DNA of 64,000 nucleotides from Victivallis vadensis (GTDB lineage: Bacteria > Verrucomicrobiota > Kiritimatiellia > UBA8416 > CAMCYG01): contig CAMCYG010000003.1 in NCBI GenBank assembly GCA_945883775.1, forward strand, positions 6,054 through 70,053, in the 5' to 3' direction. The notes under the pieces are model-generated. The model did no database searches, was not told the origin of the DNA, and saw nothing but the letters and a program-made list of their open reading frames with translations. Positions within the stretch are counted from its first letter, which is position 1. Each line of letters starts with the position of its first letter. Positions 28,249 through 59,353 of this stretch are shown piece after piece. The translations under genes and the position numbers were made by a program.

Positions 28249-28324
28249 TGGCAGGCCAGGAGGGACTTGAACCCCCAACAGCCGGTTTTGGAGACCGGTA
28301 CTCTGCCAATTGAGTTACTGGCCT
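28249..28324 (-). tRNA. trnW: tRNA-Trp (anticodon CCA), CCA end encoded
   Basis: Hand-folded 76-nt cloverleaf: acceptor AGGCCAG/CTGGCCT, anticodon arm CCGGT-CTCCAAA-ACCGG, T-loop TTCAAGT. Confidence 0.9.
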
Positions 28325-29831: not shown

Positions 29832-29907
29832 TGGAGCCCACAAGCGGGATCGAACCGCTGACCTCGTCCTTACCAAGGACGTGCTCTACCAACTGAGCTA
29901 TATGGGC
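29832..29907 (-). tRNA. trnT: tRNA-Thr (anticodon GGU), CCA end encoded
   Basis: Hand-folded 76 nt: acceptor GCCCATA/TGTGGGC, anticodon arm CGTCC-TTGGTAA-GGACG, T arm AGCGG-TTCGATC-CCGCT. Confidence 0.9.
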
Positions 29908-30620: not shown

Positions 30621-31079
30621 TCAGCCGGCACCGATATCGTCACCTTCCCTGATTGTAAGCGTCATGGGCTTCTCAGCATAAACATCCTTGCCAGCCTGAC
30701 ACGCATGTATACACGTTAGAGAGCGCCAGTGTTCCGGCGTCGCCGTAATCACCGCGTCAATATCCTTGCGCTCCAGCATTTTCCGGTAATCCTGGTACAC
30801 TTCCGCCTTGTACTTTGCAGCCCGCTCCCTCGCCCGAACAAGATTCACATCGGCAACAGCCACTATACGCGCCAACTTGGACCCGCCCGCAGAACTCAAC
30901 AACCCGCCCCCCTGCCGCCCCGGCCCAATCACCGCAATACCAATCCTGTCATTCGCGCCGGGCCTCCCGTCCGCGGCAAGAACTCCACTGGGAATAATAT
31001 ACGGTGCCGACACGGCTGCCGCACCAAATGCCAAACCACGACCTAGAAACTCTCTGCGGGATATTCCTGATGACTTCAT
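30621..31079 (-). pseudogene. Truncated Gfo/Idh/MocA oxidoreductase (TAT signal plus Rossmann N-terminus only)
   Basis: 152 aa: SRREFLGRG twin-arginine signal, IGIAVIGPGRQG and VYAEKP motifs, then a premature stop. Intact family members in this window are 386 aa and more than 270 aa. Confidence 0.65.
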
Positions 31080-31617: not shown

Positions 31618-33036
31618 TCACAGCCGATAGGCCGTCTTAGGAAGTTCGCGGGTCAGCGCCCTGATCGCCTTGAAGGCGTCGTTTTTATCCATTATATGTC
31701 TTGCCGCAAGTCCGGCGAGGCAATTGGCGTCTATACGCCGGGCAAGGTCATGCCGCGAAGGGATAGAGGTAAATGAACGAGTGTCATCGTTAAAACCTAC
31801 GGTGTTATAAACGCCGGCTGTCTCCAACACCATCTGCTTGAACCGGGTCATTCCGTTAATACTGTCATGAAACCACCAGGACGGACCAAGCCGCAAAGCA
31901 GGGTAATGCCCAGCCAGAGGAGCCAGCTCCCTCGAGTATGTAGACTCATCCATGGTAAATATTATTATCCTGAGATTGATGTCATTCCCGCATTCATTAA
32001 GCAATGCTTTAAGGTTGGTGGTAAATTCCGTAGAAACTGGAATATCGCAACCCTTGTCCGCCCCGAATCTCTTGCTGATACATTCGTTATGATTTCTGTA
32101 ACAGCCCGGATGGATCTGCATCACTAGACCGTCTTCGATGCTCATTCTGGCCATCTCAAGTAGCATATTGCCGTGGAAGAACAATGCAGTCTGCGCATCA
32201 ACAGGCGTCTTCAATGCCTTCTGGAATATCCGCTCTGATTCGTTGGGATTGAGTTTGCATGTAAAAGGCGTAAACATCGCGTGATCCGTTGCCACTGCGC
32301 CCATTTTCTTGAAATATTGACGGCGCTCCCGCAACGCATCCAGAAACATGGCATATGTAGTGACATCCTTGCCGGTAATCACCCCAAGCGCCTCGAGATT
32401 ATCGCGCCAGCCCTGACTGTCAATCTGGATCAAGCTGTCCGGCCTGAATGTCGGAATGACCCTGCCAGCCCAACCAGACTCCGCTATTTTTTTATGATGC
32501 TCCAAACTGTCCAACGCGCCATCAGTTGTCGCCATTACCTCTATCTTGAAATTCTCGTATAGCTTTCTCGGCCTGAATTCCGGCGATTTCATCTTCTCGC
32601 ACAGCTGATCGTATATCCGCATTGCAGAATCACCGCTTAACCGCTCATCAACTCCAAATACCTTGGCCAGCTCGTAATTCATCCACGACTCCGACGGCGT
32701 TCCGGCAAACAGATACCAATTATCAGCAAACAGCTGCCAAATCTTTCTGTTATCCTTCTCAACAGGAGTCCCGTCAACTGTCGGAATACCTATACTCTCA
32801 AGCGGAATTCCCTGAGAGTAAAGCATCCTGAAGACATAATGATTAGGCTTGAGCAAAAGCTCTACCGGGTCAGGGAACGCCCTGTCCTCGGCCAAGATAG
32901 ATGGATCAACATGCCCATGCGGACTGATTATGGGAAGGTCCCGTACACTCTCGTACAACTCACATGCTATCTTCCGAGTTGTAGGATCCGGATCAAAACA
33001 TCTGCTCTCGTCCAATATCAGCGGTATCTTTATCAT
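31618..33036 (-). CDS. uxaC: Uronate (glucuronate) isomerase
   Basis: 472 aa; N-terminal ...LPIISPHGHVDP... (HxH of the amidohydrolase fold) and overall UxaC-like sequence. Confidence 0.85.
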   Translation of the reverse strand: MIKIPLILDESRCFDPDPTTRKIACELYESVRDLPIISPHGHVDPSILAEDRAFPDPVELLLKPNHYVFRMLYSQGIPLESIGIPTVDGTPVEKDNRKIWQLFADNWYLFAGTPSESWMNYELAKVFGVDERLSGDSAMRIYDQLCEKMKSPEFRPRKLYENFKIEVMATTDGALDSLEHHKKIAESGWAGRVIPTFRPDSLIQIDSQGWRDNLEALGVITGKDVTTYAMFLDALRERRQYFKKMGAVATDHAMFTPFTCKLNPNESERIFQKALKTPVDAQTALFFHGNMLLEMARMSIEDGLVMQIHPGCYRNHNECISKRFGADKGCDIPVSTEFTTNLKALLNECGNDINLRIIIFTMDESTYSRELAPLAGHYPALRLGPSWWFHDSINGMTRFKQMVLETAGVYNTVGFNDDTRSFTSIPSRHDLARRIDANCLAGLAARHIMDKNDAFKAIRALTRELPKTAYRL

Positions 33037-33053: not shown

Positions 33054-34412
33054 TCAGCTCTTCTTATCTATATCAAATGGCACAAACTTCGGTGCGAGCA
33101 TATGGTGTACCGCAAAAGCCACAATATACGCCATGGCGCAAAAGCCAAACAGTATGGCATAACCATCATTGATCCGGCCAACTTTATCATATTTATCAAG
33201 AAGCATACCAGACCATATAGGGAACATCATACCGCCCAGCGATCCGGCCATTCCGCCAAGACCGACAACCGACGCAATAGCCTTTTTAGGGAACATATCC
33301 GAAACCGTTGTGAATAAGTTTGCCGACCAGGCCTGATGAGCCGCACCAGCAAGCCCTATCAACATGACAGCAACCCAGTCACCACTTGATCTGACCAGCA
33401 ATATCGGCAGAACCATGAGCGCGAATATGCACATTCCCACTTTCCTCGCCTTGGTCACACTCCAGCCGCTCTTCACCAGATGCCCTGTTATCCAGCCGCC
33501 AAATATACTGAGCACTGTCACTATGGCATATATGGTCACGAGATGCAGCCAGCTGTTCTTGATGTCAAGCCCGCGCGTTTTCTTGAAGAAATCCGGCAAC
33601 CATATGAGAAAGAACCACCACACAGGGTCCGTTAAGAATTTTCCAATTACAAACGACCACGTCTGCTTAAAGCCCAACAGCTTCAACCACGGGGTCTTCT
33701 CTGTACTTACATCTTCTCTATCGCTGAGTATGTGAGCCAGCTCTTCTTTCGATACTTTAGGATGGCCCTCAGGAGACTTATACATAGGAAGCCAGAAGAA
33801 TAACCAGACGAACCCTACAGCGCCTGCGATTATGAAAGTTGACTGCCAGCCAAATGAATACGCAAGCAGAGGTACCAGCGCCGGGGCCGCGATTGCTCCC
33901 ACATTACAGCCGCTATTGAAGAGACTGGTAGCAAATGCGCGCTCCCGCTTGGGAAACCATTGAGCCACAGCCTTGATTGCCGAAGGAAAGTTGCCTGCCT
34001 CTGCAGCACCCAGCAGTATACGGCACAAGCCGAACGCAGATACTGCAATCAAGGTATACTTGAACTCTTTCTGTCCGACAAAAAAAGACAGCCCCGCAGG
34101 GATGAGTACAATCAGCGCATGTGCCATGGCAGCCAGACTCCACCCGATCATCGAGATCGCATACCCGCGCCTTACGCCCCGCCTGTCGACGTACCAGCCG
34201 AACCACAGAAGACCCAGCCCATAAGCCGCCTGGAACAGAGAATTTATCAATCCGTATTGTGCGTTAGTCCAGCCTATCTGCACGTCGAGTATCGGCTTTA
34301 GCAGAGCCAGTATCTGACGATCTATATAGTTTACAGTGGTAGCAAAAAACAATAACGCGCAAATTACCCATCTGTAATTAGTCATCTTCCCAACAGAACT
34401 GCTACCAGCCAT
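33054..34412 (-). CDS. MFS transporter, ACS/hexuronate (ExuT-like) family
   Basis: 452 aa, 12-TM pattern; ...VNYIDRQILALLKPIL... typical of ExuT-type permeases. Adjacent to uxaC. Confidence 0.8.
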   Translation of the reverse strand: MAGSSSVGKMTNYRWVICALLFFATTVNYIDRQILALLKPILDVQIGWTNAQYGLINSLFQAAYGLGLLWFGWYVDRRGVRRGYAISMIGWSLAAMAHALIVLIPAGLSFFVGQKEFKYTLIAVSAFGLCRILLGAAEAGNFPSAIKAVAQWFPKRERAFATSLFNSGCNVGAIAAPALVPLLAYSFGWQSTFIIAGAVGFVWLFFWLPMYKSPEGHPKVSKEELAHILSDREDVSTEKTPWLKLLGFKQTWSFVIGKFLTDPVWWFFLIWLPDFFKKTRGLDIKNSWLHLVTIYAIVTVLSIFGGWITGHLVKSGWSVTKARKVGMCIFALMVLPILLVRSSGDWVAVMLIGLAGAAHQAWSANLFTTVSDMFPKKAIASVVGLGGMAGSLGGMMFPIWSGMLLDKYDKVGRINDGYAILFGFCAMAYIVAFAVHHMLAPKFVPFDIDKKS

Positions 34413-34533: not shown

Positions 34534-35982
34534 CTAGACTATATATGTCGTCGAAACCGTATCTCCACCTCTACCCGTCCAATTCGTATGGAAGAACTGA
34601 CCGCGCGGTTTATCAAGCCTCTCATAAGTGTGCGCACCAAAATAGTCACGTTGCGCCTGAAGCAGATTTGCCGGCAGGCGTTCCGACCTGTATCCGTCAA
34701 AATAGCTTAATGCGGATGACATCGAAGGCACGGGAATGCCGTTTAGCATAGCAGCTGATATTACATTCCGCCAGGCAGCCTGTGAACTCACCAGCTTATC
34801 CTTAAAGAACGGATCAAGCATCAGATTCGCAAGAGAACCGTTCTTCTCGAACGCCTCCTTGATCTTGCCGAGGAATACTGATCTTATGATGCAGCCGCCC
34901 CGCCATATAAGCGCAATTCCGCCATAGTTCAAGTTCCATCCGTATTCTTTTGCAGCTGCCATCATCAGCGAATAGCCCTGTGCATAAGACACGATCTTCG
35001 ACGCATACAGGCTCTTACGCAGGTCATCGATGAACTTAGCTTTGTCACCCTTGAACTGAATCACCGGACCACTGATCTGCTTCGAAGCCAGAACCCTTTC
35101 GTCCTTTACAGCCGACAGACATCTCGCAAACACTGACTCGCCGATGAGAGTCAGCGGCACCCCAAGATCCAGTGCCGCTATTCCGGTCCACTTGCCCGTG
35201 CCCTTCTGTCCTGCAGTGTCCAGAATCTTGTCGACCATCGCCTTGCCGTCAGCATCCTTGAAGCCAAGTATATCCCTTGTGATCTCTACAAGATAACTAT
35301 CGAGCTCACCTTTGTTCCATTCTGCAAAGACCTTGTGCATCTCGTCAGCCGACATGCCAAGCAGGTCCTTCATGATATGATAAACCTCACAAATCAACTG
35401 CATATCGCCATATTCAATCCCGTTGTGAACCATCTTCACGAAATGACCGGCACCGTTCTCGCCAATCCATTCACAGCAAGACGAGCCGCCGTCGACTTTT
35501 GCCGCTATCGCCTGAAAGATGGGCTTGACGCTAGGCCATGCAGCGGCTGATCCGCCGGGCATGATCGACGGACCAAGAAGCGCCCCTTCTTCTCCGCCAG
35601 AAACACCTGTACCAATATAAAGCAGGCCTTTCTCCTCGACATACTTTGTGCGCCTGTTGGTATCGGGATAATGAGAATTGCCGCCGTCAATAATGATATC
35701 GCCCTTTTCAAGATGAGGAATGAGCATCTCTATATACTCATCGACCGGCTTGCCAGCCTTGACCATAAGCATTACTTTTCTGGGCTTGTTGAGCGATTTT
35801 ACAAGCTCAGGAATCGTAGCCGCGCCGATAAACTTCTTACCCTTGCCTCTACCATTAACAAATTCAGTCACCTTGGACACTGTACGGTTAAATACTGCCA
35901 CCGTAAACCCCTTGCTCTCCATGTTAAGGACAAGATTCTCGCCCATCACAGCCAACCCGATCAAACCAATATCAGCCTTCAT
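34534..35982 (-). CDS. gnd: 6-phosphogluconate dehydrogenase (decarboxylating)
   Basis: 482 aa; [16 protein letters not shown] Rossmann N-terminus and full-length Gnd-like sequence. GGAGG 8 nt upstream of the ATG. Confidence 0.93.
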
Positions 35983-35995
35983 TAATTTACCTCCG

Positions 35996-36019
35996 TTAAT
36001 CCGGCGTTCGCCGGATTAA
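35996..36019. repeat. Perfect 11-bp-stem hairpin abutting the gnd Shine-Dalgarno
   Basis: TTAATCCGGCG tt CGCCGGATTAA. No U-tract. Confidence 0.7.
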
Positions 36020-36066
36020 TAATGTTTCTCTGCATTAATTCAACTAACTGTATATCCTCTCACACG

Positions 36067-36133
36067 GTAGGGCGAACCCTCCGGGTGAGCCGGTAATTCC
36101 AATTCTACGGCTCGGCCAGAGGCCTCGCCCTAC
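36067..36133. repeat. Inverted REP-like pair, GTAGGGCGA family
   Basis: GTAGGGCGAACCCTCCGGGTGAGCCGG...ACGGCTCGGCCAGAGGCCTCGCCCTAC; the 9-bp termini are exact inverted repeats. A near-copy sits at 47745-47812. Overlaps the TAG stop of the LarA-like gene. Confidence 0.8.
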
Positions 36134-37401
36134 CTAAATCTACTATTGACCGACCATAATCCCAATGCCGGATTGGAGATGTAGAAGATCTCCTCTCCGT
36201 CCTTCATCACATTAAAGCCATCCTTCAGGCGCGTGACATCATACTTCTGCATCATCTGCCCAAGTTCTGCGTGCTTGAAGTTTATCGCCTCTATATCACT
36301 GCGCGAAATGGTGTCAGTACAATATGTGACAGTAAAGCGCCCTTCCGTTGACCCGTGTATCAAATGTGCTGCGGCGCTGAGATTCTGCTTTAAATCATCA
36401 TTATGTTTTACAAGCTCCTGCACCTTGTCGCTGCCTACATAACCGTATTTCCTTATAAGCTTATTGATCTGGGGATCCTCGCCAAACTCCTTCAAGCCAG
36501 GCGCAAGTATGATCAGCTCACCGGCGTCAGCCAGAGCCATCCTGGTTCGATAGATGGCCTTGTTGCCCAGCCACGTGCTCTTAAACTCTGCGGGATCAAG
36601 GTAGACCACGACTTTTTTCAGCGGCTTTTCCAGCATCTGGAAATTCACCTTGAGCGAAAGGTCCGCCGCCTTTCTGAAACATTCGTCATCATTTCCGATA
36701 TACAGACCCCTGACGACCAGCCGACCGTCTTCGCCTCGCCCGACAACCGTCTGAACATACACTACAGGCATATCAGGCGCTATCTTTGTCGATGCATAAT
36801 TGAGCACTTTCCGTACAGGCGTGTCCACCCTGCCCATTATCCGCTCCATGCCGTAAACGGCTCCAAGATAATGACTTTTGCTGATACCTTCCGCCCCGCC
36901 AACTCCTACGAATATGTTTTTGTTATGGTTTGCCATGCCAATGACTTCGTGCGGCACCACCTGTCCAATTGACAGGATCAAATCTACGTTGTCATTCACC
37001 AGCATCTTATTTACCTGCGCCGGCCACGGATAATCCAGCCGACCTTCAGAGACTTCGCGCACATATTCGCCAGGCACCTGACCGAGCGTAACAAGATCTT
37101 TTCTAAAGTCATGGACACGGAACAGCGAACGGGGAACATCCGGAAACATGCTCGCAATCTCAACGTCCGACATCGCATAATGAGTACCAAGCGCAGGCAT
37201 CACCGCATATGTCTTTTCACGATAATACTCATAGGCATATTTTGTGAGCTCACCGGCACGTGAATGATACCTTGTCTGGTCCGGCGGAAGCAGAAGGACC
37301 TTTCGCCTATCGCCGACAGTTTTCAATGCACAACAGAGACACTCCTTGAGCTCTTGCGAGGAGAGATCTGCCGATTCACTGCCCTTTTCGAAGTACATCA
37401 T
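36130..37401 (-). CDS. LarA-family (nickel-pincer nucleotide dependent) 2-hydroxyacid racemase/epimerase homologue, DUF2088
   Basis: 423 aa with DQTR(41-44), GTH74, PH151, K161 and H177. The spacings match the LarA catalytic His, cofactor Lys and Ni His (see findings). Confidence 0.7.
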   Translation of the reverse strand: MMYFEKGSESADLSSQELKECLCCALKTVGDRRKVLLLPPDQTRYHSRAGELTKYAYEYYREKTYAVMPALGTHYAMSDVEIASMFPDVPRSLFRVHDFRKDLVTLGQVPGEYVREVSEGRLDYPWPAQVNKMLVNDNVDLILSIGQVVPHEVIGMANHNKNIFVGVGGAEGISKSHYLGAVYGMERIMGRVDTPVRKVLNYASTKIAPDMPVVYVQTVVGRGEDGRLVVRGLYIGNDDECFRKAADLSLKVNFQMLEKPLKKVVVYLDPAEFKSTWLGNKAIYRTRMALADAGELIILAPGLKEFGEDPQINKLIRKYGYVGSDKVQELVKHNDDLKQNLSAAAHLIHGSTEGRFTVTYCTDTISRSDIEAINFKHAELGQMMQKYDVTRLKDGFNVMKDGEEIFYISNPALGLWSVNSRFR

Positions 37402-37402: not shown

Positions 37403-38290
37403 TCAGCACCACGGTGGATTCTCTGGCAGAAAAGTCTTGAATTCTTTAATCAGCGCGGCCTCGTATGCGCCGCTATAAGTACCCGCAAAGAATTTATCCA
37501 GCGCCTCGCCGTGGAACCTCTGCCACGACTCATCCTCTCGACCGGGATTCACCGGGAAGAACAGCACCCCATTCGCTGTTGCAGCACTCAGATCACCAAT
37601 CGCGTCTCCGACCATCAGTATTTTTTTCGCATCATACTTTCCAACAGCACCAAACTTCAAATGCTCGGTCTTTGTGCCATACTCCTGACCTGCAATCAGG
37701 CGAGTAAACTTCTTAATGTCGTGCTCTTCCCACTCCCTGTTGAGTGCGGCGCCAGGCGTCTGCGAAACGACCATAATGTCGGCCGTAGGCTTCATTTTCT
37801 CCAACGACTCCTGCACATAAGGGAAAGGCGGGATCCCAGACACCATATCCTCTATGTCCTCGTTAATCGCCTCCGACCATGCCAGCGTCCTGTAAACAAT
37901 GTCATTTTGGACAACATCTGCATATTTCTCCAAAGTCGGATTCCCGAGCTTCGTTTCCTTTTTCGTCCACTCCACAATCTGCGGGATCTCAATAATCTGG
38001 GCCTTACGAGCCTTGACCTCGCGGCGCTCCCTAAGCAAGTCCAGCACCTTGATCAAAGCAATGAATCTATTACAGCCGCGCGTTGTCGAATAGAGATTTA
38101 CAAAATCCCACGCCTCGCGCGCATACTTTGACACCTTCTGCAAATCAAAATACTTGATAGTATTGGGACAGAAGCACTCCTTGTGCTTGATCTCCATCGT
38201 ATCAAACGCACAGCCGTCAGAATCTATTCCAATGAAAAACTCTTTCGCCGGCTTGATATCCGTCAACTCCTTGTGTGGGTCTTTACTCAT
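37403..38290 (-). CDS. HAD-superfamily hydrolase (probable sugar-phosphate phosphatase)
   Basis: Motif I IDSDGC and motif IV GDAIGD. ATG at 38290 has AGGAGA 7 nt upstream; the longer ORF reaches 38320. Confidence 0.75.
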   Translation of the reverse strand: MSKDPHKELTDIKPAKEFFIGIDSDGCAFDTMEIKHKECFCPNTIKYFDLQKVSKYAREAWDFVNLYSTTRGCNRFIALIKVLDLLRERREVKARKAQIIEIPQIVEWTKKETKLGNPTLEKYADVVQNDIVYRTLAWSEAINEDIEDMVSGIPPFPYVQESLEKMKPTADIMVVSQTPGAALNREWEEHDIKKFTRLIAGQEYGTKTEHLKFGAVGKYDAKKILMVGDAIGDLSAATANGVLFFPVNPGREDESWQRFHGEALDKFFAGTYSGAYEAALIKEFKTFLPENPPWC

Positions 38291-38334
38291 TAATCTTTCT
38301 CCTGATTCGACATTCTTCATTTTGATTGCAAATT

Positions 38335-38393: not shown

Positions 38394-38442
38394 CCTGAAT
38401 TCTGTATTCAGTTCGACTGTCTACTGTTCACCGTCTACCGCC
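38394..38442. repeat. Degenerate heptanucleotide tandem array (7 units)
   Basis: CCTGAAT TCTGTAT TCAGTTC GACTGTC TACTGTT CACCGTC TACCGCC. Runs into the pfk-family stop codon. Confidence 0.6.
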
Positions 38443-39734
38443 TACTTCTTCTTGTACGCTTCAGGCATATATTCCGGCAACTTCTTCTTGGCGAATATCT
38501 CCTTGAACTGCGAAAAACGCTGGCGACCATTGATAATGGGCACCGAAACCCAGTCCTCACCGATCAGCGGCCTGGCGTAGTCCACAAAATCATCCGTCAC
38601 ATCGACCTTGCTCTTCGAAATCCATTCCGCCGGGAAGAAGCGCTCTGACAATGCCACTTTCTCCAACGGCACCTTGCCGTACCTGACATTGTAAATAAAA
38701 CCAGGCTCTCTGAGTATCGTCGCCATCCAGCCATTCCCGTCTTTGACTGCTACTTCCACAGCTTTCTGGCCCACCTTGTAAGCTTCCTCAAGATCAACTG
38801 TTGATGCAAATATAATCGAATGACGCTGGTCCGTCCCCGGCACTTGGCCTCTGGCGCTGCCCTGCGCTTTGATACCCTTCTCATTAAGATAGTTCACGAC
38901 CGCCTGATAAGCAGAGATCTTACTGGCACCGAATTCGACATGACCGAACGAATCACGCACTTCGCCAATGCTTCCGACATCGAAACCCTCACTGACCACA
39001 ACTATACAGCGATGATCCTTCGACAGCTGATCATTCACCTTGTCAAGCATCTCAGGCATGGACAACTTTGACTCCGTCATATAGATCTGAAGCGGCATCG
39101 TCCTGTCCGGATCAGCAAGCCTGGCAGCGGCTGGTATATACCCGATTTTCCTGCCCATCGCCTGAAGTACAAGTACAGGATCCGCCGGGTACGACCCCAT
39201 GTTTTCCTCATTAGCCGCCTGAACCACGTGTGACCAGTATTTTGCCACACTTCCGTAACCGGGTGTGTGGTCAATCAATGTACGTTCGCTGTCGCCAAGG
39301 TCATTGTCGATGGTTTTGGGCACACCTGTCGCAACGACATCAATTCCCTTATCCTTACACAGCTGGCTGACTTTGTAGGCGGTATGCTGCGAGTCGTTAC
39401 CGCCAATATAGAAGAAATAGCCGATATTATGAGCTTTGAACACCTCTGCTATGCGATCGAAATCTTTCAACTGCTTATCTTTGAGCTTGTAGCGGCAAGT
39501 TCCGATACTGCCTGCGGCAGGCGTAGTACGCAAAAGAGATATCTCCTCCCGATCCTGAGACGACAGATCCAGAAGATCTTCTTTTAGAACTCCCTCTATA
39601 CCATGCCAGCCACCATAGACTGTGCCGAATTTATCAGGAAACATCCGACATGCCTCGATAATCCCACGCAACGAATTATTGATTACCGGCGACGGCCCAC
39701 CCGACTGCGCTATCAATACATTCTTCTTCGCCAT
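38442..39734 (-). CDS. Phosphofructokinase-family enzyme, probably PPi-dependent
   Basis: 430 aa with GGNDS and PKTIDNDL motifs. Lys in PKTIDND is the PPi-type signature. Strong AGAGGAGA RBS. Confidence 0.8.
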   Translation of the reverse strand: MAKKNVLIAQSGGPSPVINNSLRGIIEACRMFPDKFGTVYGGWHGIEGVLKEDLLDLSSQDREEISLLRTTPAAGSIGTCRYKLKDKQLKDFDRIAEVFKAHNIGYFFYIGGNDSQHTAYKVSQLCKDKGIDVVATGVPKTIDNDLGDSERTLIDHTPGYGSVAKYWSHVVQAANEENMGSYPADPVLVLQAMGRKIGYIPAAARLADPDRTMPLQIYMTESKLSMPEMLDKVNDQLSKDHRCIVVVSEGFDVGSIGEVRDSFGHVEFGASKISAYQAVVNYLNEKGIKAQGSARGQVPGTDQRHSIIFASTVDLEEAYKVGQKAVEVAVKDGNGWMATILREPGFIYNVRYGKVPLEKVALSERFFPAEWISKSKVDVTDDFVDYARPLIGEDWVSVPIINGRQRFSQFKEIFAKKKLPEYMPEAYKKK

Positions 39735-39886: not shown

Positions 39887-40738
39887 TTAAACACCCGAAT
39901 ACGCGCTGAAACCTCCGTCAACAGGGATAATAACGCCTGTTATGAATTTGGAAAGGTCAGAAGTCAGAAAAAGCGCAGTTCCCACCAGATCAGCCGGCTC
40001 ACCGAATTTACCCATCGGAGTCCCGTTTATGATCTTATTGCCGCGAGGTGTCAGCTGGCCGGTCTTCTCATCAGTCAACAGGAAACGGTTCTGATTAGTC
40101 ACAAAAAAGCCAGGCGCCACAGCGTTGACGCGCACATTGACCTTTGCCATATGCACCGCCAGCCACTGCGTAAAGTTGTTTATCGACGCCTTGGCAGCGG
40201 AATAAGCAGGAATTTTTGTCAAAGGACGGAAAGAATTCATCGAAGATATATTTAGTATTGCACCGCCGGATGCGTTGACCATATCTCTGGAGAAGACCAT
40301 GGTCGGCAGGATCGTCCCCTTAAAATTAAGATCAAATATCTTATCAAACCCTTCCAGCTCCAATCCAAAGAAAGTACCGGCAAGTTCACCAAGATCACCC
40401 TTTTCAATAAACTCTTTAGCCGTAGTTGCTTTTGGCGAATTGCCTCCGGCGCAATTGATCAGAATATCAATCATACCCAGACGACTTTTAATTTCTTCGT
40501 TTGCCTTTCCAAGCGAGACTTTATCAAGAACATTTGCCTGGATCCCGATAACTGCATTCTTCGTCCTGCCTGCGATATCGGCCGCGACTTTGTCGGCTGC
40601 TTCCTTGCTCAGATCGGCAATAGCCACCTTGCAACCTGCCGCCGAATAACCTTCCGCGAGAGTTGCTCCTATAACGCCCGCTCCTCCGGTTATCACACAA
40701 ACCTTACCCTTCATGCCTGAGAAATCATATTTGACCAT
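39887..40738 (-). CDS. SDR oxidoreductase, UxuB/YjmF-type (fructuronate reductase / D-mannonate oxidoreductase-like)
   Basis: 283 aa from ATG at 40738; the longest ORF adds 21 aa. TGGAGVIG, SSMNSFRPLTKIPAYSAAKA and C-terminal VDGGFSAYSGV, typical of this SDR subfamily. Confidence 0.75.
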   Translation of the reverse strand: MVKYDFSGMKGKVCVITGGAGVIGATLAEGYSAAGCKVAIADLSKEAADKVAADIAGRTKNAVIGIQANVLDKVSLGKANEEIKSRLGMIDILINCAGGNSPKATTAKEFIEKGDLGELAGTFFGLELEGFDKIFDLNFKGTILPTMVFSRDMVNASGGAILNISSMNSFRPLTKIPAYSAAKASINNFTQWLAVHMAKVNVRVNAVAPGFFVTNQNRFLLTDEKTGQLTPRGNKIINGTPMGKFGEPADLVGTALFLTSDLSKFITGVIIPVDGGFSAYSGV

Positions 40739-40993
40739 GGTTAATTCCCTCTTCTTTCTTGTAATTAAATTAACCTTAATAACTAGCCAAAAAGAAATCA
40801 ATAAGAAATTATAAATTTAAATATGACTAGGGATGTAAGACAGATTTGTCGGGTTAGGCCTCAATGAGAAATGGATCTAAAGCTGTAACTCATTAGACCG
40901 CAATCACCTCCCCTGCTATACAGAAAAGGCAAAGACCCGAAAGAGAGATCATTCACGAGCTCAAAGCTATCGAATATCACCCACCGACGCTGA

Positions 40994-41983
40994 TCAACCA
41001 AACGCTTCGTCGAATACCCTGTCAGACTTCTTGAAATCAAGAGCCTTGACGAAACGGCAGGCTTCTTCAGCACCGTGCTCACGGTCCATCATCGCATCTT
41101 CCCACTCAACCGACAAGGGCCCAGCGTAGTTGATGACATTAAGCTGACGCATGATCTCCTCGAACTTCACGCCGCCGCGGCCAAGGCTTCTAAAATCCCA
41201 ACCTCTGCCGGGCGTACCGAAGTTCAGGTGCGACGACAGTATCCCGCTCTCGCCATCGAGAGTCACTGCCGCATCCTTCATATGGACATGATATATCCTA
41301 TCCGGAAACGCTTTGATGAACTTGACAGGGTCGACCATCTGCCAGTGCAAATGGCTGGGGTCGAAGTTGAAGCCGAACGTCTTCCTGTCCTTCACTGCTC
41401 TCAGAGCCCGTCTGGCGGTAATGATATCGAAAGCTATCTCGGTAGGATGGACTTCCAGTGCGAATTTTACGCCGCATTTATCGAATTCATCCAGTATCGG
41501 GTTCCACATCTTCGCAAAGAACGCGAAACCGTCCTCGACCATCGTGTCACTGACAGGCGGGAAGCTGTAGAGCATATGCCATATCGATGAGCCGGTAAAA
41601 CCATTGACCACCTTGACCCCGATATTCTTCGCAGCCTTGGCTGTATACTTCATCTCCTGGACCGCCCAGGCGCGCTTCTTCTCTGCATTGCCATGACATG
41701 TCTTTGGTGAAAACAGATCTGATCGGGAATCATTATTAGCATCACAAACAAGCTGTCCTGAAAGATGAGCACTTATCGCGTAGCACTCCAGCTTGTAGTC
41801 AGCCAGAAGCTCTTTCCTGCTCTTTGCGTATTTAAGATCCTTGGCCGCTTTTTCGACTTCGACATGATCACCCCAGCAAGCAAGCTCAAGCCCATCATAG
41901 CCCCACGCCTTTGCCTTTTTTGCAAGGTCTTCAAGTTTCAAATCAGCCCACTGCCCAGTGAATAAAGTTACCGGTCTAGCCAT
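40994..41983 (-). CDS. Xylose-isomerase-like TIM-barrel protein (sugar phosphate isomerase/epimerase family)
   Basis: 329 aa; ...WGYDGLELACWGDH... and HVHMKD metal-site context. AGGAGG RBS. Confidence 0.8.
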   Translation of the reverse strand: MARPVTLFTGQWADLKLEDLAKKAKAWGYDGLELACWGDHVEVEKAAKDLKYAKSRKELLADYKLECYAISAHLSGQLVCDANNDSRSDLFSPKTCHGNAEKKRAWAVQEMKYTAKAAKNIGVKVVNGFTGSSIWHMLYSFPPVSDTMVEDGFAFFAKMWNPILDEFDKCGVKFALEVHPTEIAFDIITARRALRAVKDRKTFGFNFDPSHLHWQMVDPVKFIKAFPDRIYHVHMKDAAVTLDGESGILSSHLNFGTPGRGWDFRSLGRGGVKFEEIMRQLNVINYAGPLSVEWEDAMMDREHGAEEACRFVKALDFKKSDRVFDEAFG

Positions 41984-42044
41984 TGTAGTTCCTCCTCTTA
42001 TCTTTGCTTATCCGCATTCATCGGCCATTAAACATTCTTCTCAT

Positions 42045-42067
42045 CCGCTCATAGAGCGGTGCTACAT
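42045..42067. repeat. GTAG-headed REP-like hairpin
   Basis: CCGCTC-ata-GAGCGG-TGCTACAT. Differs from the 38335 copy only by a compensatory G-C to C-G swap of the outer stem pair. Confidence 0.85.
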
Positions 42068-42158
42068 TCTGAATTCTGGATTCTGACTCCTGAATTCTTC
42101 TCTCCTGCCGCTCTTGATTTATTTCTGGTTTCGTATTTCTAGTTTCAGGTTTCTCTTT
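42068..42158. repeat. Degenerate heptanucleotide tandem array (13 units in one phase)
   Basis: TCTGAAT TCTGGAT TCTGACT CCTGAAT TCTTCTC TCCTGCC GCTCTTG ATTTATT TCTGGTT TCGTATT TCTAGTT TCAGGTT TCTCTTT. Confidence 0.8.
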
Positions 42159-43317
42159 ACATCTTCACCCATTTAGCACCGAGCTTGGCAGATTTCACGA
42201 CCGCCTCGATGAACTGCATTCCTCTTAAGCCCGCCTCGACGCCCGGAAAGTCCAGCGCTAGAGGATCAACTTTGGCCCCCTCAAGCTTTGCAATTATTAC
42301 ATCAGCGAAGTTTGAATAATTGTTTGCAAATGCCTCAAAGAACGCTTCAGGATGACCGAACGGCAGTCTCGAATTGCGCGCGGCGGCTTTGCTCTTCTCG
42401 CCGACGTAAGCATTGCCGCGCTTCCAGATCTGCGTCGGGCCGTTTATTACATTGACGGACAGATAGTTCGGATTTTCCTGATGCCACTCAAGGCTCTTTT
42501 CCATGCCGTACACCCAGATTGCAAGATTGTTCTCCTCACCAATGGAAACCTGACTGGCATGAAGAACACCTCTTGCTCCGTTATCAAAACGAAGCAGGCA
42601 GTTGCCGTCATCCTCAAGCCTGCGACCCTGCACGAAGGTCGTAAGGTCGGCACATATCTCCTTTACCTTCAGCCCTGAGATATATTCCGCAAGGTTCTCC
42701 GCGTGCGTACCTATATCACCCATACAGCCTGCAGCACCGCTCTGCTTAGGATCGGTCCGCCATGAAGCCTGCTGAGAGCCTTCTCGCTCTATGGGCTTGA
42801 TCAGCCAGCCTTGCGGATATTGCACAACGATCTTAATGATCTTGCCCAAGTCGCCCTGCTTAACCATATCGCGCGCAAGCTTCACCATCGGATAACCGGT
42901 ATAGTTGTGCATCAGACCGAACACCTTGCCGGATTTCTTTACGATCTTCTCCAGAGATTTGGCCTCTTTCACGTCCATAGTCATCGGCTTCTCGCACATT
43001 ACATTAAAGCCGGCCTCAAGGAATGCCGCCGCTATGGGATAATGCCAGTTATTAGGAGTAGTGACCGACACGAAATCAACCCTCTCCCCGACAGGCAGTT
43101 TCTTCTCCTCCTGGATCATCGTTTTGTAATCAGAGTAAGTGCGGGCAGGACTAATGCACAGCTCACGACCCATCTGCATACTCTTCTCAGGATTGATATC
43201 AAATGCTCCGGCCACGATATCAATCTTGCCATCCAGCCGCGCAGCCCTGCGGTGAACTTCTCCGATAAACGCACCCGGCCCGCCGCCAACCATTCCCATC
43301 TTGAGTTTTCTTTTCAC
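42157..43317 (-). CDS. Gfo/Idh/MocA-family NAD(P)-dependent oxidoreductase (cytoplasmic)
   Basis: GTG start at 43317, 5 nt after AAGGAGG; the longest ORF to 43410 would overlap the MFS gene. VKRKLKMGMVGGGPGAFIG... and CEKP motif. Confidence 0.8.
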   Translation of the reverse strand: MKRKLKMGMVGGGPGAFIGEVHRRAARLDGKIDIVAGAFDINPEKSMQMGRELCISPARTYSDYKTMIQEEKKLPVGERVDFVSVTTPNNWHYPIAAAFLEAGFNVMCEKPMTMDVKEAKSLEKIVKKSGKVFGLMHNYTGYPMVKLARDMVKQGDLGKIIKIVVQYPQGWLIKPIEREGSQQASWRTDPKQSGAAGCMGDIGTHAENLAEYISGLKVKEICADLTTFVQGRRLEDDGNCLLRFDNGARGVLHASQVSIGEENNLAIWVYGMEKSLEWHQENPNYLSVNVINGPTQIWKRGNAYVGEKSKAAARNSRLPFGHPEAFFEAFANNYSNFADVIIAKLEGAKVDPLALDFPGVEAGLRGMQFIEAVVKSAKLGAKWVKM

Positions 43318-43339
43318 AAATGCCTCCTTGAGATAGTAA

Positions 43340-44842
43340 TTATTCCGTGATCTTTTCCACCTTGTAGCCACCACGCTGTCTGTCGCTGATGTATAAGATG
43401 CCAAAGACAAGAACCAGCACTATTGCAGAAGGCGCCATCATGCGGAATGCTATCCTTCCGCCATAATTGTCGGCCGGATTAAGGATCTTCGCAGCCTCGT
43501 CAACAACGGGAGCCTTGATGTTTGCGCCAAGTGCCGTCCTCAAAGCGTTTGCCGTTTCAGGCTGAGGAAGCTCACCTGCTGGCAGCGTCTTCACCTTGTC
43601 AAGAAATGCCCTGGCCGTATCAATGCTTGGCTGGAAGTCATTCTTAAGTTCATTCTTAGCTTCCGCCTGCAGCTTCGGAAACTCGACTGCGATCTTTTCG
43701 ATAACAGCAACTGTCTCTACAGCAGACAGCTTATCATTTAGATGCTGGTCGGCGATTTTGCCTATCAGAGGGGAAGCAATCATTCCTGACGCAAGCATAC
43801 CCATGCCGCCCATCAGCGCCAACGCAAGCGCTCCACCTTTCGGCACCCTTTCCGCCACCAGACCAACCATTGTCGGCCAGAAATAGCAAACGCCAACCGC
43901 AAAGACCGTCGATGCCGCAAGTGCCATCTTTATGGATTCCGCATAGCTCAACCAGTAAAGGCCGGCGCCACTAATAATTGCGGAGCCTAGCAGAAGACCA
44001 GTCGGTGAGAATTTATGAACAAAGGGCCCGGCAAAGTATCGCAGGACCGCCATAAGTCCAGTTATCCAGACGAGAACAAGTATGCCGTGCATTCCCCCAG
44101 CCTGCAGAATCGAAGGGATCCAGCGGTTCGGGCCGAGTTCAAGCGAGGCTGTCAGGCCCATGCAGAGGAACATTATAATGAACAAAGGCCTCATAAGCGT
44201 GGCCTTCATCATCCCGCCAAAAGATATGCCGGAACGGACACGCTCAGTGACCGGATAAGTCTGGCCCATTGCCAGGAACCCATACACTAAAGCTGGGATC
44301 ATAATAAGGCAAAGCCTGAGTTTCCAGGACATGACGCCAAGCTGGGCCAGCCCAAAACAGGCAAGGCCGCCGATCACTATACCACCCGGGAACCACATAT
44401 GAAATTTATTCAGCCTTGTCGTCTTGTCATCCGGATACAACGTTGCAACAAGAGGGTTACAGACAGCTTCCACCGTGCCGTTGCCTATAGCAAGCACAAG
44501 TGCGCCGGCAAAAAGCATCGTAAACCCATTGGCAAATATCATAATTGCCGGCCCTGCCATATGACACAGAAACGCGAAACCTAGAAGCCGCTTCATCCCC
44601 AACGCATCGCAAAACGGGCCTAGCACGATAATTGACAGAGTGAAGCCCCAGAGCGCAGCTCCTCCAATCCAGCCTACCTGCTCGTTAGTCAAAACAAAAT
44701 GAGTCTTGAGCGCACCCATAATGTCACCTATTACCGCGAACGCAACTGCGGTTGCTATCAGAGCCAGACAGCTGCCGACAAACAATCGCGCTGCATGAAC
44801 ACTGCTCACCCCGTGAACTGCTGATGGATCCGAATTAGACAT
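43340..44842 (-). CDS. MFS transporter with C-terminal hydrophilic domain plus an extra TM helix
   Basis: ATG at 44842 follows AGGAGG. 500 aa; the core MFS is followed by a ~100-aa helical hydrophilic segment and a final hydrophobic helix. Confidence 0.75.
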   Translation of the reverse strand: MSNSDPSAVHGVSSVHAARLFVGSCLALIATAVAFAVIGDIMGALKTHFVLTNEQVGWIGGAALWGFTLSIIVLGPFCDALGMKRLLGFAFLCHMAGPAIMIFANGFTMLFAGALVLAIGNGTVEAVCNPLVATLYPDDKTTRLNKFHMWFPGGIVIGGLACFGLAQLGVMSWKLRLCLIMIPALVYGFLAMGQTYPVTERVRSGISFGGMMKATLMRPLFIIMFLCMGLTASLELGPNRWIPSILQAGGMHGILVLVWITGLMAVLRYFAGPFVHKFSPTGLLLGSAIISGAGLYWLSYAESIKMALAASTVFAVGVCYFWPTMVGLVAERVPKGGALALALMGGMGMLASGMIASPLIGKIADQHLNDKLSAVETVAVIEKIAVEFPKLQAEAKNELKNDFQPSIDTARAFLDKVKTLPAGELPQPETANALRTALGANIKAPVVDEAAKILNPADNYGGRIAFRMMAPSAIVLVLVFGILYISDRQRGGYKVEKITE

Positions 44843-45032
44843 ACTACCTCCTGTTGTTTTTAATCTGCTTTCCCTCACATCTGCAACAAATGCACTTTGA
44901 TTTCTACCCCAAAGATTAATCCTAAGCAATGCTGAAGAACGAGCCACCAACTCTTAATGTTAGAGACGGTACATAAAACATCTAATCTTGTCTTGTATTT
45001 ATACTGCAATTTCTTGTACTATTTCGGCGCTG

Positions 45033-45746
45033 ATGAATTCCTCAAACTTACAGATAGAAGCATTTAGGCAACTCTACCAGTACCTGCCAGACGTCTATTT
45101 CTTCGCAAAAGACATTAACTGCAAGTTCATTATGGCGAATACCACATTTGTAGAAAAATGCGGAGCACACAAAGAATCGGATATAATAGGAAAAACGGAT
45201 TACGACCTCTTTCCGCATGATCGCGCCGAGATATACATAAAGGACGATCAGTATGTCATGTCGACAGGGCAGAGCATCATAAACAAAGTCGAACTCGCCC
45301 CGGAATCTGACAATTCGATGAACTGGTTCATCACCAATAAAGTGCCCTTACGCTCGCATGACGGCAAAATCGTCGGTCTAGCAGGAATTGCGCGTGACCT
45401 AAACAAGGCGATAACATCGCTAACCCCCTACTCTCATATGTCAGGAGTCCTCAAATACATCAACGACCACCATATGGAGGAGATCGAGATTCACGACCTT
45501 GCCGAAATGGTGCATCTATCTGTCAGCCAATTCGAGCGGAAGTTTAAAAAGACGTTTCAGTTAAGCCCCGTGAAGCATATTACCAACGTAAGGATAAATT
45601 CCGCCAAGCAGCAGCTGGCATTATCCAGCAAAAAAATATCCTCCATCGCACAGGACGCCGGATTCTACGACCATAGCCACCTCACCCGCGAATTCATACG
45701 GCACACCGGAATGACCCCCACCCAGTATCGCAAGAAGATGGGATGA
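45033..45746 (+). CDS. PAS-domain AraC-family transcriptional regulator
   Basis: N-terminal PAS-like fold (...FFAKDINCKFIMAN...GLAGIARD) and C-terminal AraC HTH (...HLTREFIRHTGMTPTQYRK). First ATG is at 45033; the track start at 44988 is a TTG. Confidence 0.8.
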   Translation: MNSSNLQIEAFRQLYQYLPDVYFFAKDINCKFIMANTTFVEKCGAHKESDIIGKTDYDLFPHDRAEIYIKDDQYVMSTGQSIINKVELAPESDNSMNWFITNKVPLRSHDGKIVGLAGIARDLNKAITSLTPYSHMSGVLKYINDHHMEEIEIHDLAEMVHLSVSQFERKFKKTFQLSPVKHITNVRINSAKQQLALSSKKISSIAQDAGFYDHSHLTREFIRHTGMTPTQYRKKMG

Positions 45747-46692: not shown

Positions 46693-47727
46693 CTACATCT
46701 TAATCAACGCCTTCATCACTCCGTCGCGATAACCGGCGACTACATCAAAAGCCTTCTTAACATCCTTTAATGCAAACCTGTGCGTTATCATGGGGTCAGG
46801 CCTGATCTTTCTGCTGCCAATCATCCTGACAGCATCATGGTCGCAGCCGTTCTGACGCCTGACATTCTGGAGCGTAATCTCCTTCCTCCGCAGATCCTCC
46901 ATCTTGAACGAAACACGGTCAACCGTAGGAATACCGATTATCATCAGCTTTCCTCCAGGCTTAAGGATCGATATAGCCTGATCCAGTGCAGCCTGCTTGC
47001 CGCAACAGTCGAAAACGATGTCGAGCTGTGCTTTCTCTTTTCCGTTGATTGCCTTGTCAACCTCAAGAACGTCCGGGTTGCCAGCCCAGACAGCACCCGT
47101 CTTTTTTGCAAGTTTCAAGCGCTCTGCTATCTTGTCTGTCACATACACACGCCCGACTCCGCATGCCTTCAGCATCAGATGAACGCTCATCCCAATCGGC
47201 CCATAGCCAAGTATGCCGACATTCCTGTCTTTGACATTACCAGCAGACCGCACAGCATAAAGACCAATTGCCAGCGGCTCAGCAAGAGCGCCCTGCTCAG
47301 CCGTCATACCCGTCGGCATTTTTATGCAGTTCGCCTCCGGCATTACTATGTATTCAGAAAGACAGCCTGCTATTTGGCCCGGACAGCCGAGGAACTTTAT
47401 TTTCCGGCAGGTATGCGGCCGGCCAACACGGCACTGATCACACGAACCGCAATTTATAGCCGGCTCTATAGCAACAAGATCGCCGGGTTTCAGGGATTTT
47501 ACCGAGGAACCTACGCTCTCAACAATGCCGGAACACTCGTGCCCCACCGCGAATGGATATTTGACGACCTGACTTCCGATTCTGCCGGTGAGATAGTAGT
47601 GCACATCGGAGCCGCAGACTCCGATTGCCTTCATCCTGACAAGCACGTCAGTTCTGGATATGAGCCTCGGAACCGGCCGCTCGACCAGCTTCATCTTTCT
47701 TAAACCTGTCAGCACCGCAGATTTCAT
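46693..47727 (-). CDS. Zinc-dependent polyol dehydrogenase (sorbitol/L-iditol dehydrogenase-like MDR)
   Basis: 344 aa from ATG at 47727; the longer ORF N-terminus is translated REP sequence. GVCGSDVHYY..GRIG, GHE, and structural zinc CGSCDQCRVGRPHTC. Confidence 0.85.
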   Translation of the reverse strand: MKSAVLTGLRKMKLVERPVPRLISRTDVLVRMKAIGVCGSDVHYYLTGRIGSQVVKYPFAVGHECSGIVESVGSSVKSLKPGDLVAIEPAINCGSCDQCRVGRPHTCRKIKFLGCPGQIAGCLSEYIVMPEANCIKMPTGMTAEQGALAEPLAIGLYAVRSAGNVKDRNVGILGYGPIGMSVHLMLKACGVGRVYVTDKIAERLKLAKKTGAVWAGNPDVLEVDKAINGKEKAQLDIVFDCCGKQAALDQAISILKPGGKLMIIGIPTVDRVSFKMEDLRRKEITLQNVRRQNGCDHDAVRMIGSRKIRPDPMITHRFALKDVKKAFDVVAGYRDGVMKALIKM

Positions 47728-47744
47728 TGTGCGTCTCTCTTTAA

Positions 47745-47812
47745 CCGGCTCACCCAGAGGGTTCGCCCTACCTTTCAGGAATTGGGTAGGGCGAGGCGTC
47801 CCTGCCGAGCCG
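47745..47812. repeat. Inverted REP-like pair, GTAGGGCGA family
   Basis: CCGGCTCACCCAGAGGGTTCGCCCTAC ctttcaggaattgg GTAGGGCGAGGCGTCCCTGCCGAGCCG. Halves are near-identical to those at 36067-36133 but in permuted order. Confidence 0.8.
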
Positions 47813-47871
47813 TCTTCGTTTGGTGGCATCCAACGTTGGCCACATCAAGTTAATCTGTGGGCAACGCTCTT

Positions 47872-49092: not shown

Positions 49093-49145
49093 CTGTATAT
49101 CCCCTGCGTTTTTTACAAGATCAATAATCATGACCGGCAGTATAT

Positions 49146-49176
49146 GTAAATTTGCGTGCATTGCACGCAAATTTAC
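49146..49176. promoter_or_regulatory. Perfect 15+1+15 bp palindrome, candidate operator in a divergent intergenic region
   Basis: GTAAATTTGCGTGCA t TGCACGCAAATTTAC, verified base by base. Lies 43-73 nt upstream of the ATG at 49219. Confidence 0.6.
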
Positions 49177-49218
49177 GGTACATATTCCCTTAGGTTAGGA
49201 ATTATGGGAGGAGAATAT

Positions 49219-49431
49219 ATGGCATCGAAGAAACCACTAAAGAAGATGAGCATCAGGGAAGTAAAGTTCTTCAAGATCGCAAACCGAAAGGGATTCGCTA
49301 CCATTGCTAAAAACAACCTCACCGAAGGCCGCACTGTCTATCAGGCTTACAGCCGAATGGTAAAGGCCTGCAAACGTATGGGCTACGAACTGCCCCTGGC
49401 CGCAGGCGTTACGCTTCCTAAACCGAAATGA
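49219..49431 (+). CDS. Small (70 aa) highly basic hypothetical protein
   Basis: GGGAGGAG 5 nt before the ATG at 49219. MASKKPLKKMSIREVKFFKIANRKGF... has 17 K/R against 3 D/E. No family recognised. Confidence 0.5.
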   Translation: MASKKPLKKMSIREVKFFKIANRKGFATIAKNNLTEGRTVYQAYSRMVKACKRMGYELPLAAGVTLPKPK

Positions 49432-49523
49432 GAATTTCGGTTTTGTGCAAAGTGTAAGGTTTAAAGTACAAGGCAGTTCTAGCTGACTTCTTTTAACTTT
49501 ACACTTATACGGCTTTGAGTCCG

Positions 49524-52392: not shown

Positions 52393-52466
52393 GCGCATGA
52401 CACTGCGCCGCTTCAACAAATCAATTCTCATTCTGAATTCTGACTACTGAATCCTGAATTCTTACC
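52393..52466. repeat. Degenerate REP hairpin plus heptanucleotide array
   Basis: CAGCGCATGACAC-TGCGCCGCTTCA is a decayed copy of CAGCGCATGACACATGCGCTGCTACAT at 53919. It is followed by TTCTCAT TCTGAAT TCTGACT ACTGAAT CCTGAAT TCTTACC. Confidence 0.75.
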
Positions 52467-53850: not shown

Positions 53851-53887
53851 TTCAATTCCTCCTGTCTGTTTCCGCATATACTCATCA

Positions 53888-59262: not shown

Positions 59263-59353
59263 ATGTGATTACTTATGATTAGATACAATCAGATGTAATC
59301 ATAATGAATCACACAAGACAAGAAGAATTTTGCGTATTTTTTCATGGATTTCT

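Follow-up and report, generated by a model that had tools for sequence, protein, structure and literature searches.

A predicted nickel-pincer hexonate epimerase of LarAH group 18 in a hexuronate gene cluster of a putative PVC-superphylum bacterium

The stretch of DNA considered here, called the window, is 64 kb of contig CAMCYG010000003.1 (assembly GCA_945883775.1) and carries, within a cluster of hexuronate genes, a gene for a homologue of the lactate racemase LarA. Judged by its sequence, the product is an intact, fairly divergent member of LarA homologue (LarAH) group 18, which belongs to the GntE clade of the LarA superfamily and is a family already named. We lean towards reading it as a functional group-18 2-hydroxyacid epimerase dependent on the nickel-pincer nucleotide (NPN), acting in vivo most probably on free D-mannonate, with phosphorylation following epimerisation. 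We infer the catalytic mechanism by homology with LarA and the role in the pathway from a very consistent gene context. The gene and the codons that matter for its catalysis are the following.

36130..37401, minus strand: LarAH group 18 protein, predicted NPN-dependent hexonate C2-epimerase, 423 amino acids (open reading frame, NF052594, Pfam Lar_N, 4NAR, AlphaFold2 (AF2)/Foldseek)
37270..37281, minus strand: codons D41-Q-T-R44, equivalent to LarA D72 to R75, of which R75 binds NPN (alignment, 70 homologues)
36871..36951, minus strand: cofactor and catalytic loop codons H151-E152-V153 ... K161 ... H177, equivalent to LarA H174, F175, F176, K184 and H200 (alignment; invariant in 70/70)
36559..36573, minus strand: codons W277-L-G-N-K281, equivalent to LarA Y294-Q-A-V-K298, with K281 the conserved catalytic lysine and W-L-x-N-K the group-18 signature (alignment, 70 homologues)

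The family assignment is based on profile matches and on an active-site signature. NCBIfam model NF052594, 'nickel-dependent putative hexonate epimerase', scores 648 bits against an equivalog cut-off of 500 (E=5e-195) and covers positions 2-410 of its 411; as the short name NPN_18_hexonate indicates, the model corresponds to LarAH group 18 of Desguin et al. 2020 (Sci Rep 10:18123; PMC7583248). The match to Pfam PF09861 (Lar_N) is modest, at 31.6 bits with a cut-off of 23.3, the lactate racemase LarA model NF033504 stays below its cut-off (13.9 bits vs 460), and the sequence match in the PDB is 4NAR, the GntE2 structure, at E=2e-39. Desguin et al. defined the LarAH groups by 20 active-site positions, which in group 18 read D R H H E V K H V W L N K S A A L I H S (Table S3). 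Leaving the I220-equivalent aside, the 19 positions read in our protein are D41, R44, H74, H151, E152, V153, K161, H177, W277, L278, N280, K281, S342, A344, A345, L347, I348, H349 and S351, and the group-18 pattern D-R-H-H-E-V-K-H...W-L-x-N-K...S-x-A-A-x-L-I-H-x-S is present throughout. In groups 18, 19 and 20 the second catalytic histidine is followed by an E-V/S loop and the catalytic lysine preceded by a tryptophan, and the conversion of D-mannonate to D-gluconate is catalysed by groups 19 and 20 (PMC7583248). A definition of GntE enzymes published in 2024 places E, V, A and H at LarA positions F175, F176, W358 and T359. Here E152-V153 is present, while the A345-H346 pair, common to our protein, GntE1-type and GntE2 sequences, lies two residues off W358/T359 in our MAFFT register, whereas the paper used a structural alignment. 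The closest relative in protein databases is at most 69% identical, and relatives bear the names 'nickel-dependent lactate racemase' (JGI) or 'DUF2088 domain-containing protein' (NCBI).

Residue correspondences were drawn from a MAFFT alignment of our protein with LarA of Lactiplantibacillus plantarum, GntE2 (4NAR) of Thermotoga maritima and members of LarAH groups 17, 18 and 19, the LarA and group 17-20 sequences being taken from Dataset S2 of Desguin et al. 2020 (PMC7583248). The open reading frame exists at the coordinates given in an earlier note on this DNA, with the orientation corrected to the minus strand, and starts with ATG; a script located D41-Q-T-R44, G72-T-H74, P150-H151, K161 and H177 exactly where that note had put them. 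It had also equated H151, K161 and H177 with LarA H174, K184 and H200, the point on which its assignment hinged, and H74 with LarA H108 from its GTH context; both equations hold in the alignment. The spacings from H151 to K161 (+10) and from K161 to H177 (+16) are the same as in LarA and, because the residues themselves align, reflect real homology and not coincidence. The invariant columns, given as our protein = LarA, are D41=D72, R44=R75, H74=H108, H151=H174, K161=K184, H177=H200 and K281=K298, the last adding a match to a catalytic lysine absent from the earlier list of residues. The published GntE2 numbering (R41, H154, E155, S156, K164, H180, G286) is recovered by the same alignment, so its register is sound. 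Each of D41, R44, H74, H151, K161, H177 and K281 is kept in all 70 homologues from genome loci, which are 59-67% identical to our protein. When a profile of 21 group-18 sequences was run against PDB sequences, 4NAR was the sole match at E<=0.01 and LarA (5HUQ) was not recovered; the LarA correspondence was therefore set by the alignment, bridged through groups 17, 19 and 20, together with a fold search.

The AF2 model of the epimerase (pLDDT 82, pTM 0.82) shows the two-domain LarA fold, and the best 19 PDB matches found for it by Foldseek are all LarA-family structures. Among them are 4NAR (template modelling (TM) score 0.78), the Isosphaera broad-spectrum racemase (0.68) and the LarA enzymes of T. 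thermosaccharolyticum and L. plantarum (0.66-0.67; 0.66 for 5HUQ of L. plantarum). Residues 145-168, the loop with H151 and K161, are the sole low-confidence stretch of this apo model, which would fit a cofactor-binding loop whose cofactor is missing from the model.

The nearest solved structure, GntE2 (TM0442, LarAH group 20; 26-29% identity), has the same D/R/H/H/K/H/K set, an acidic first loop residue (E) and the tryptophan before the catalytic lysine, and a similar pathway, from mannonate over gluconate and 6-phosphogluconate to Gnd, has been proposed for it. It differs in its loop (E-S, where our protein has E-V), in a T-G-K in place of L-x-N-K, in lacking a Y-R-T-R motif, in a longer alpha13-alpha14 insertion and in an operon that carries an FGGY gluconokinase, unlike the locus studied here. 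The PDB title of 4NAR, 'putative uronate isomerase', is obsolete and was rejected as a name. LarA of L. plantarum agrees with our protein in fold, tether lysine, nickel-ligating histidine, two catalytic histidines, aspartate, arginine, lysine and spacings, yet the two are only 17% identical. The LarA pocket residues F175, F176, Q295 and W358 are replaced in our protein, with E, V and L or small residues standing at F175/F176/W358 of the lactate pocket, and its locus lacks the lar operon context (larBCDE, lactate permease).

The eukaryotic enzyme LarAH15/GntE, from the oomycete Phytophthora nicotianae (Urdiain-Arraiza et al. 2024, JBC 301:108069), is an NPN-dependent D-gluconate 2-epimerase that turns over D-mannonate with a kcat of 111 per s and a Km of 9.4 mM, as assayed on non-phosphorylated acids (PMC11770544). 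By sequence it appears to belong to group 18 and to have the active-site signature of our protein: its forward cloning primer encodes M-A-T-L-L-F-A-E-G, which matches MTLLFAEG of P. infestans PITG_09435, and the 2020 dataset (PMC7583248) assigns the latter, which bears these signature residues, to group 18. A group-18 enzyme has thus probably already been shown to act on free mannonate. D-mannonate is also epimerised by GntE1 and GntE2 (PMC7583248).

Gene context was surveyed by a genome scan with one genome per species, which found at least 590 loci encoding relatives; 80 were kept. Neighbours were sought in these by tblastn with the neighbour proteins of the window, and locus order was obtained by clustering of open reading frames. 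In the window the genes are transcribed in the following order, all from the minus strand, with the epimerase gene between the HAD-like gene and gnd; counts refer to the surveyed loci.

39887..40801, minus strand: D-mannonate oxidoreductase (fructuronate reductase, UxuB-like) of the short-chain dehydrogenase/reductase (SDR) type (NF006132, 375 bits vs cut-off 281; 55/80 loci)
38442..39734, minus strand: phosphofructokinase (PFK)-family kinase, 430 amino acids, with pyrophosphate (PPi)-type markers (NF010675, 377 bits; 3HNO/3K2Q, E=5e-72)
37403..38320, minus strand: HAD-like protein (weak Pfam HAD_2 match, E=2e-4; adjacent to LarAH18 in 13/80 loci)
34534..35982, minus strand: gnd, decarboxylating NADP-dependent 6-phosphogluconate dehydrogenase (TIGR00873, 776 bits; 49/80 loci)
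33054..34412, minus strand: major facilitator superfamily (MFS) transporter, D-galactonate/hexuronate (ExuT-like) subfamily (20/80 loci)
31618..33036, minus strand: UxaC glucuronate isomerase (NF002794, 530 bits; 30/80 loci)

The surveyed loci come from Planctomycetota, Bacteroidota, Ignavibacteria, Acidobacteriota, Spirochaetota, Verrucomicrobiota and others. By tblastn, the SDR lies directly upstream of the gene for the group-18 protein (LarAH18) in 55 of the 80 and Gnd directly downstream in 49, and the PFK-like protein is found in 4. UxaE is present in 31. The consensus order is [UxaC, UxaE, LacI], SDR, kinase slot, LarAH18, then a GFO-family dehydrogenase, PdxB or nothing, and finally Gnd and an MFS transporter, where the kinase slot holds a PfkB kinase, a PFK-like plus a HAD-like gene, a HAD-like gene by itself, UxuA, or nothing. 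The core order SDR, (kinase), LarAH18, Gnd recurs across all six groups named above. One flanking enzyme makes mannonate and the other consumes 6-phosphogluconate, compounds that differ by an inversion at C2 and a 6-phosphate, and this is the strongest contextual argument for the reaction.

The context in the window agrees with these loci and with the one published for group 18, in which Table S1 of Desguin et al. lists an SDR (36%), 6-phosphogluconate dehydrogenase (32%), a ribokinase-family kinase (16%), an MFS permease, glucuronate isomerase and KduI (PMC7583248). Our protein is 61% identical to a member of that group, ACP_2683 of Acidobacterium capsulatum, and shares with the group the surroundings of SDR, Gnd, sugar kinase, MFS transporter and UxaC, differing in that the kinase slot here holds the PFK-family and HAD-like pair in place of the ribokinase-family kinase of the paper. 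The proposal of the earlier note, an NPN-dependent 2-hydroxyacid epimerase in place of a decayed DUF2088 protein, is supported by alignment, fold, family model and gene context. Its description of the neighbours as a sugar-acid and not a lactate context is borne out by the flanking hexuronate genes, a context already published for group 18. Its view of the substrate stands in part: a sugar acid it should be, but 'unassigned' no longer applies, as group 18, now modelled in NF052594, was predicted in 2020 to be a hexonate epimerase, with the substrate left as 'a hexonate' (PMC7583248).

Transferred from LarA, the mechanism would run as follows. NPN would be tethered to K161, the equivalent of the thioamide-tether lysine K184 of LarA, with its nickel ligated by H177 and R44 helping to hold it. 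The hydride at C2 of the substrate would move transiently to C4 of the NPN pyridinium, giving a 2-keto intermediate, and would then return to the opposite face while H74 and H151 alternate as base and acid, so that the D-mannonate skeleton is inverted at C2 to that of D-gluconate. On the level of the pathway, the MFS transporter would bring in hexuronates, which UxaC would isomerise and the UxuB-like SDR would reduce; the products would leave as 6-phosphogluconate, to be decarboxylated by the adjacent Gnd. The predicted route thus leads from glucuronate or galacturonate over fructuronate, mannonate and 6-phosphogluconate to ribulose-5-phosphate.

Several observations weigh against free mannonate as the substrate, or against the proposed reaction as a whole. 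The characterised GntEs have a high Km for free mannonate, 9-120 mM (PMC7583248, PMC11770544), and epimerisation between D-mannonate and D-gluconate has been measured for GntE1, GntE2, LarAH10 and LarAH15 only, no bacterial group-18 member being among them. In extracts of L. suebicus, mannonate was epimerised only once phosphorylated (PMC6978723). The neighbourhood contains a dedicated kinase and, in translational coupling with the epimerase, a phosphatase-like protein of HAD type, and a gluconokinase of known type was not found in the operon. Furthermore, the NPN biosynthesis genes larB, larC and larE were not found among the scanned open reading frames of the 64-kb window; this absence is uninformative, since the published group-18 contexts also show no linkage to larB/C/E (PMC7583248).

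Many of these points would fit a second, more tentative reading in which the order of the last two steps is reversed. Group 18 would then be a 6-phospho-D-mannonate 2-epimerase: a dedicated kinase, the PFK-family protein here and the LarAH18-linked PfkB paralogue elsewhere, would make 6-phosphomannonate, and LarAH18 would convert it to 6-phosphogluconate for Gnd. Such an activity is known biochemically. Valk et al. 2020 (Front Microbiol 10:3027) described in L. suebicus an orphan 6-phosphomannonate 2-epimerase that holds the pathway position predicted for our protein, between UxuB-made mannonate and Gnd; the cell extracts contained mannonate kinase as well as 6-phosphomannonate 2-epimerase activity and did not epimerise free mannonate, with genes not assigned there (PMC6978723). 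A LarA-family protein was proposed as candidate, namely a homologue of TM0442 that was abundant in cells grown on galacturonate. The 2020 dataset (PMC7583248) does not include L. suebicus, however, so this homologue has no LarAH group there. The known enzymes' high Km for free mannonate speaks in the same direction as the extracts, as does the fact that the literature searched reports no assay of a phosphorylated aldonate on any LarA homologue. Against this, LarAH15, apparently a group-18 enzyme, turns over free mannonate well (PMC11770544). Within the protein, a Y-R-T-R motif (R285, R287) just after K281 is kept in 70/70 group-18 homologues, is missing in GntE1 and GntE2 (groups 19 and 20) and could bind a phosphate, although this role is read from sequence conservation.

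PfkB kinases adjoin LarAH18 in 25 loci; they are 357-365 amino acids long and form clades apart from the 344-347-residue, Eda-linked kinases of KdgK type, and both paralogues occur together in five loci (L025, L028, L061, L064, L078). On a KDPG-aldolase/sugar-kinase model the Eda-linked proteins score 490-562 bits, compared with 157-272 bits and no equivalog match for the LarAH18-linked ones. The LarAH18-Gnd branch thus has a dedicated kinase, a point in favour of the phosphorylated substrate. This kinase usually sits beside the gene in related loci, and in the window its slot is taken by the PFK-family kinase and the HAD-like protein. In one genome (Ignavibacteriales CP065001.1, locus L087) a 359-residue PfkB replaces the PFK-like gene in the order SDR-PfkB-HAD-LarAH-Gnd, which looks like non-orthologous displacement between two kinases sharing the slot SDR-[kinase]-HAD-LarAH18-Gnd. 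Nevertheless, many loci lack an adjacent kinase, and a kinase adjoining the epimerase is compatible with both orders of steps.

Between phyla, members of the PFK-like subfamily are 70-76% identical (tblastn). Their residues were numbered, approximately, against a Bacillus PFK sequence. On this scale the subfamily keeps the catalytic aspartates and the PPi-type markers D104 and K124, and it has a proline in place of the R162-equivalent 6-phosphate ligand, a threonine at 249 and a five-residue insertion. The loss of the R162-equivalent counts in favour of the 6-phosphomannonate reading. Alternatively, the gene may encode a true PPi-phosphofructokinase of the pentose phosphate pathway or gluconeogenesis, which fits the transketolase or FBP aldolase genes lying next to Gnd in some loci. 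We consider this less likely, given that a PfkB kinase takes the identical slot and that the subfamily departs at substrate-ligand positions from solved structures annotated as PPi-PFK.

The HAD-like protein has the complete set of four HAD motifs together with a large C1 cap, and its stop codon lies 1 nt before the start codon of the epimerase, a closeness that again favours the phosphorylated substrate. Its true start is likely M11 (295 amino acids). Its Pfam HAD_2 match is sub-threshold, and neither a PDB sequence match nor an NCBIfam match at E<=1e-5 was found. Foldseek with its AF2 model (pLDDT 93) returns sugar-phosphate/phosphoglycolate phosphatases, the BT2127 pyrophosphatase and beta-PGM at TM 0.4-0.5, which as fold matches are generic C1-cap HAD phosphatases. 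The PFK-like gene is always paired with the HAD-like gene, and the pair is recurrent in hexuronate loci (HAD-centred contexts, L082-L088). It was also seen in several phyla, sometimes without LarAH18 or Gnd, for example in the order UxaC-UxaE-Eda-PFK-HAD-TRAP-KduI-KduD. Taken as a whole, a scheme in which group 18 is a 6-phospho-D-mannonate 2-epimerase, a mannonate 6-kinase was recruited at least twice (PfkB in most lineages, a PPi-type PFK here) and the HAD-like protein is a repair or control phosphatase of the phospho-aldonate pool is possible, though we would not expect it to be the right one.

A different uronate-derived 2-hydroxyacid as the true substrate, such as altronate, idonate, galactonate or an aldarate, with only promiscuous activity on mannonate, is improbable. 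Desguin et al. did leave the substrate as 'a hexonate' and suspected a different true substrate for GntE1 (PMC7583248), KduI/KduD genes are frequent nearby, and GFO/IDH/MocA and PdxB dehydrogenases often stand between LarAH18 and Gnd. However, the two best-kept neighbours, the mannonate-forming reductase and Gnd, bracket exactly the C2 inversion from mannonate to gluconate, and the active-site signature is common to enzymes proven on mannonate. Finally, a decayed, non-catalytic DUF2088 protein or a lactate racemase, as the automatic JGI and NCBI annotations of relatives and the weak Lar_N match might suggest, was rejected as very unlikely in view of the invariant catalytic and cofactor residues, the failed LarA model, the replaced F175/F176/W358 pocket and a context free of lactate genes.

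As to the genes seen between LarAH18 and gnd, about 20 of the 80 loci (L006, L009, L016, L028, L058, L060, L064, L086, L088 and others) have one that scores above the equivalog cut-off of PdxB, 4-phosphoerythronate dehydrogenase, and in other loci a 332-residue GFO/IDH/MocA dehydrogenase fills the gap. The position of PdxB may be a coincidence, serve the removal of a Gnd inhibitor or mark a pathway step. In the window, the 147-bp LarAH-gnd spacer contains a palindrome with a perfect 11-bp stem, TTAATCCGGCG-AACG-CGCCGGATTAA on the coding strand (35995-36020), directly upstream of the gnd ribosome-binding site, which could be an intercistronic hairpin or an operator. Scans for sigma-70 promoters and terminators over 29.7-45.2 kb gave counts not above those in shuffled sequence, and operon boundaries were therefore not drawn from them.

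The host appears to be an uncultured bacterium of the PVC superphylum, as suggested by RpoB of the window, which is 74-76% identical to that of the nearest named metagenome-assembled genomes, from Kiritimatiellia and Lentisphaerae. Positions 1-29907 hold ribosomal protein, rpoB/rpoC and tuf-secE-nusG-rplKAJL clusters as well as tRNA-Trp (28249-28324) and tRNA-Thr (29832-29907). Between UxaC and the tRNA-Thr/tuf region, a 152-residue open reading frame (30621-31079, minus strand) corresponds to no more than the N-terminal Rossmann part of GFO/IDH/MocA oxidoreductases. It matches best a glycoside 3-dehydrogenase model, of whose 487 positions it covers the first 135, and is probably the remnant of a truncated gene.

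Upstream of the hexuronate genes lies a second sugar module (40994-45746) with an MFS transporter, a GFO/IDH/MocA oxidoreductase weakly resembling levoglucosan dehydrogenase, a xylose-isomerase-like TIM-barrel protein and a divergently transcribed PAS-AraC regulator. It resembles a pathway of the 3-keto-sugar type, and a search for it beside LarAH18 gave 0 matches in the 80 loci. Further on, a gene resembling zinc-dependent L-idonate/threonine dehydrogenases (46693-47829) adjoins two genes at 47872-51206 (minus strand), one for a 432-residue protein with only a weak PHP-domain match and one for a 560-residue protein with the GroES-like N-domain of alcohol dehydrogenases in an apparently split or expanded architecture. 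A 763-residue fusion of the alpha and beta subunits of pyruvate dehydrogenase E1 (56176-58467, minus strand) is followed by E2 (54811-56151), LipB (53945-54586) and dihydrolipoyl dehydrogenase (52462-53901). Positions 58489-63004 (minus strand) encode a DeoR regulator, a 420-residue GHMP-family kinase and a 656-residue sodium:solute symporter, a putative unit for sugar uptake and phosphorylation.

For the family, the finding adds a divergent PVC member to a group that had already been named and whose reaction type had been predicted, and it is in this respect largely known. The assignment is useful for annotation, if not surprising, since DUF2088 and 'lactate racemase' persist as labels of relatives, and the exact substrate together with the odd kinase and HAD partners makes the locus moderately interesting. 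The route from mannonate to 6-phosphogluconate turns pectin-derived uronic acids into pentose phosphate in a redox-neutral manner; its genes were given as unidentified in 2020 (PMC6978723), and a later assignment was not found in the literature searched. Our survey nominates a compact and widespread gene set for it, consisting of a UxuB-type SDR, a dedicated kinase from one of two alternative families, the HAD-like protein, LarAH18 and Gnd, which would be of interest to groups working on NPN enzymes and to the engineering of galacturonate fermentation. If 6-phosphomannonate proved to be the substrate, this gene set would encode the redox-neutral route from hexuronates to pentose phosphate that has been seen biochemically in L. 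suebicus.

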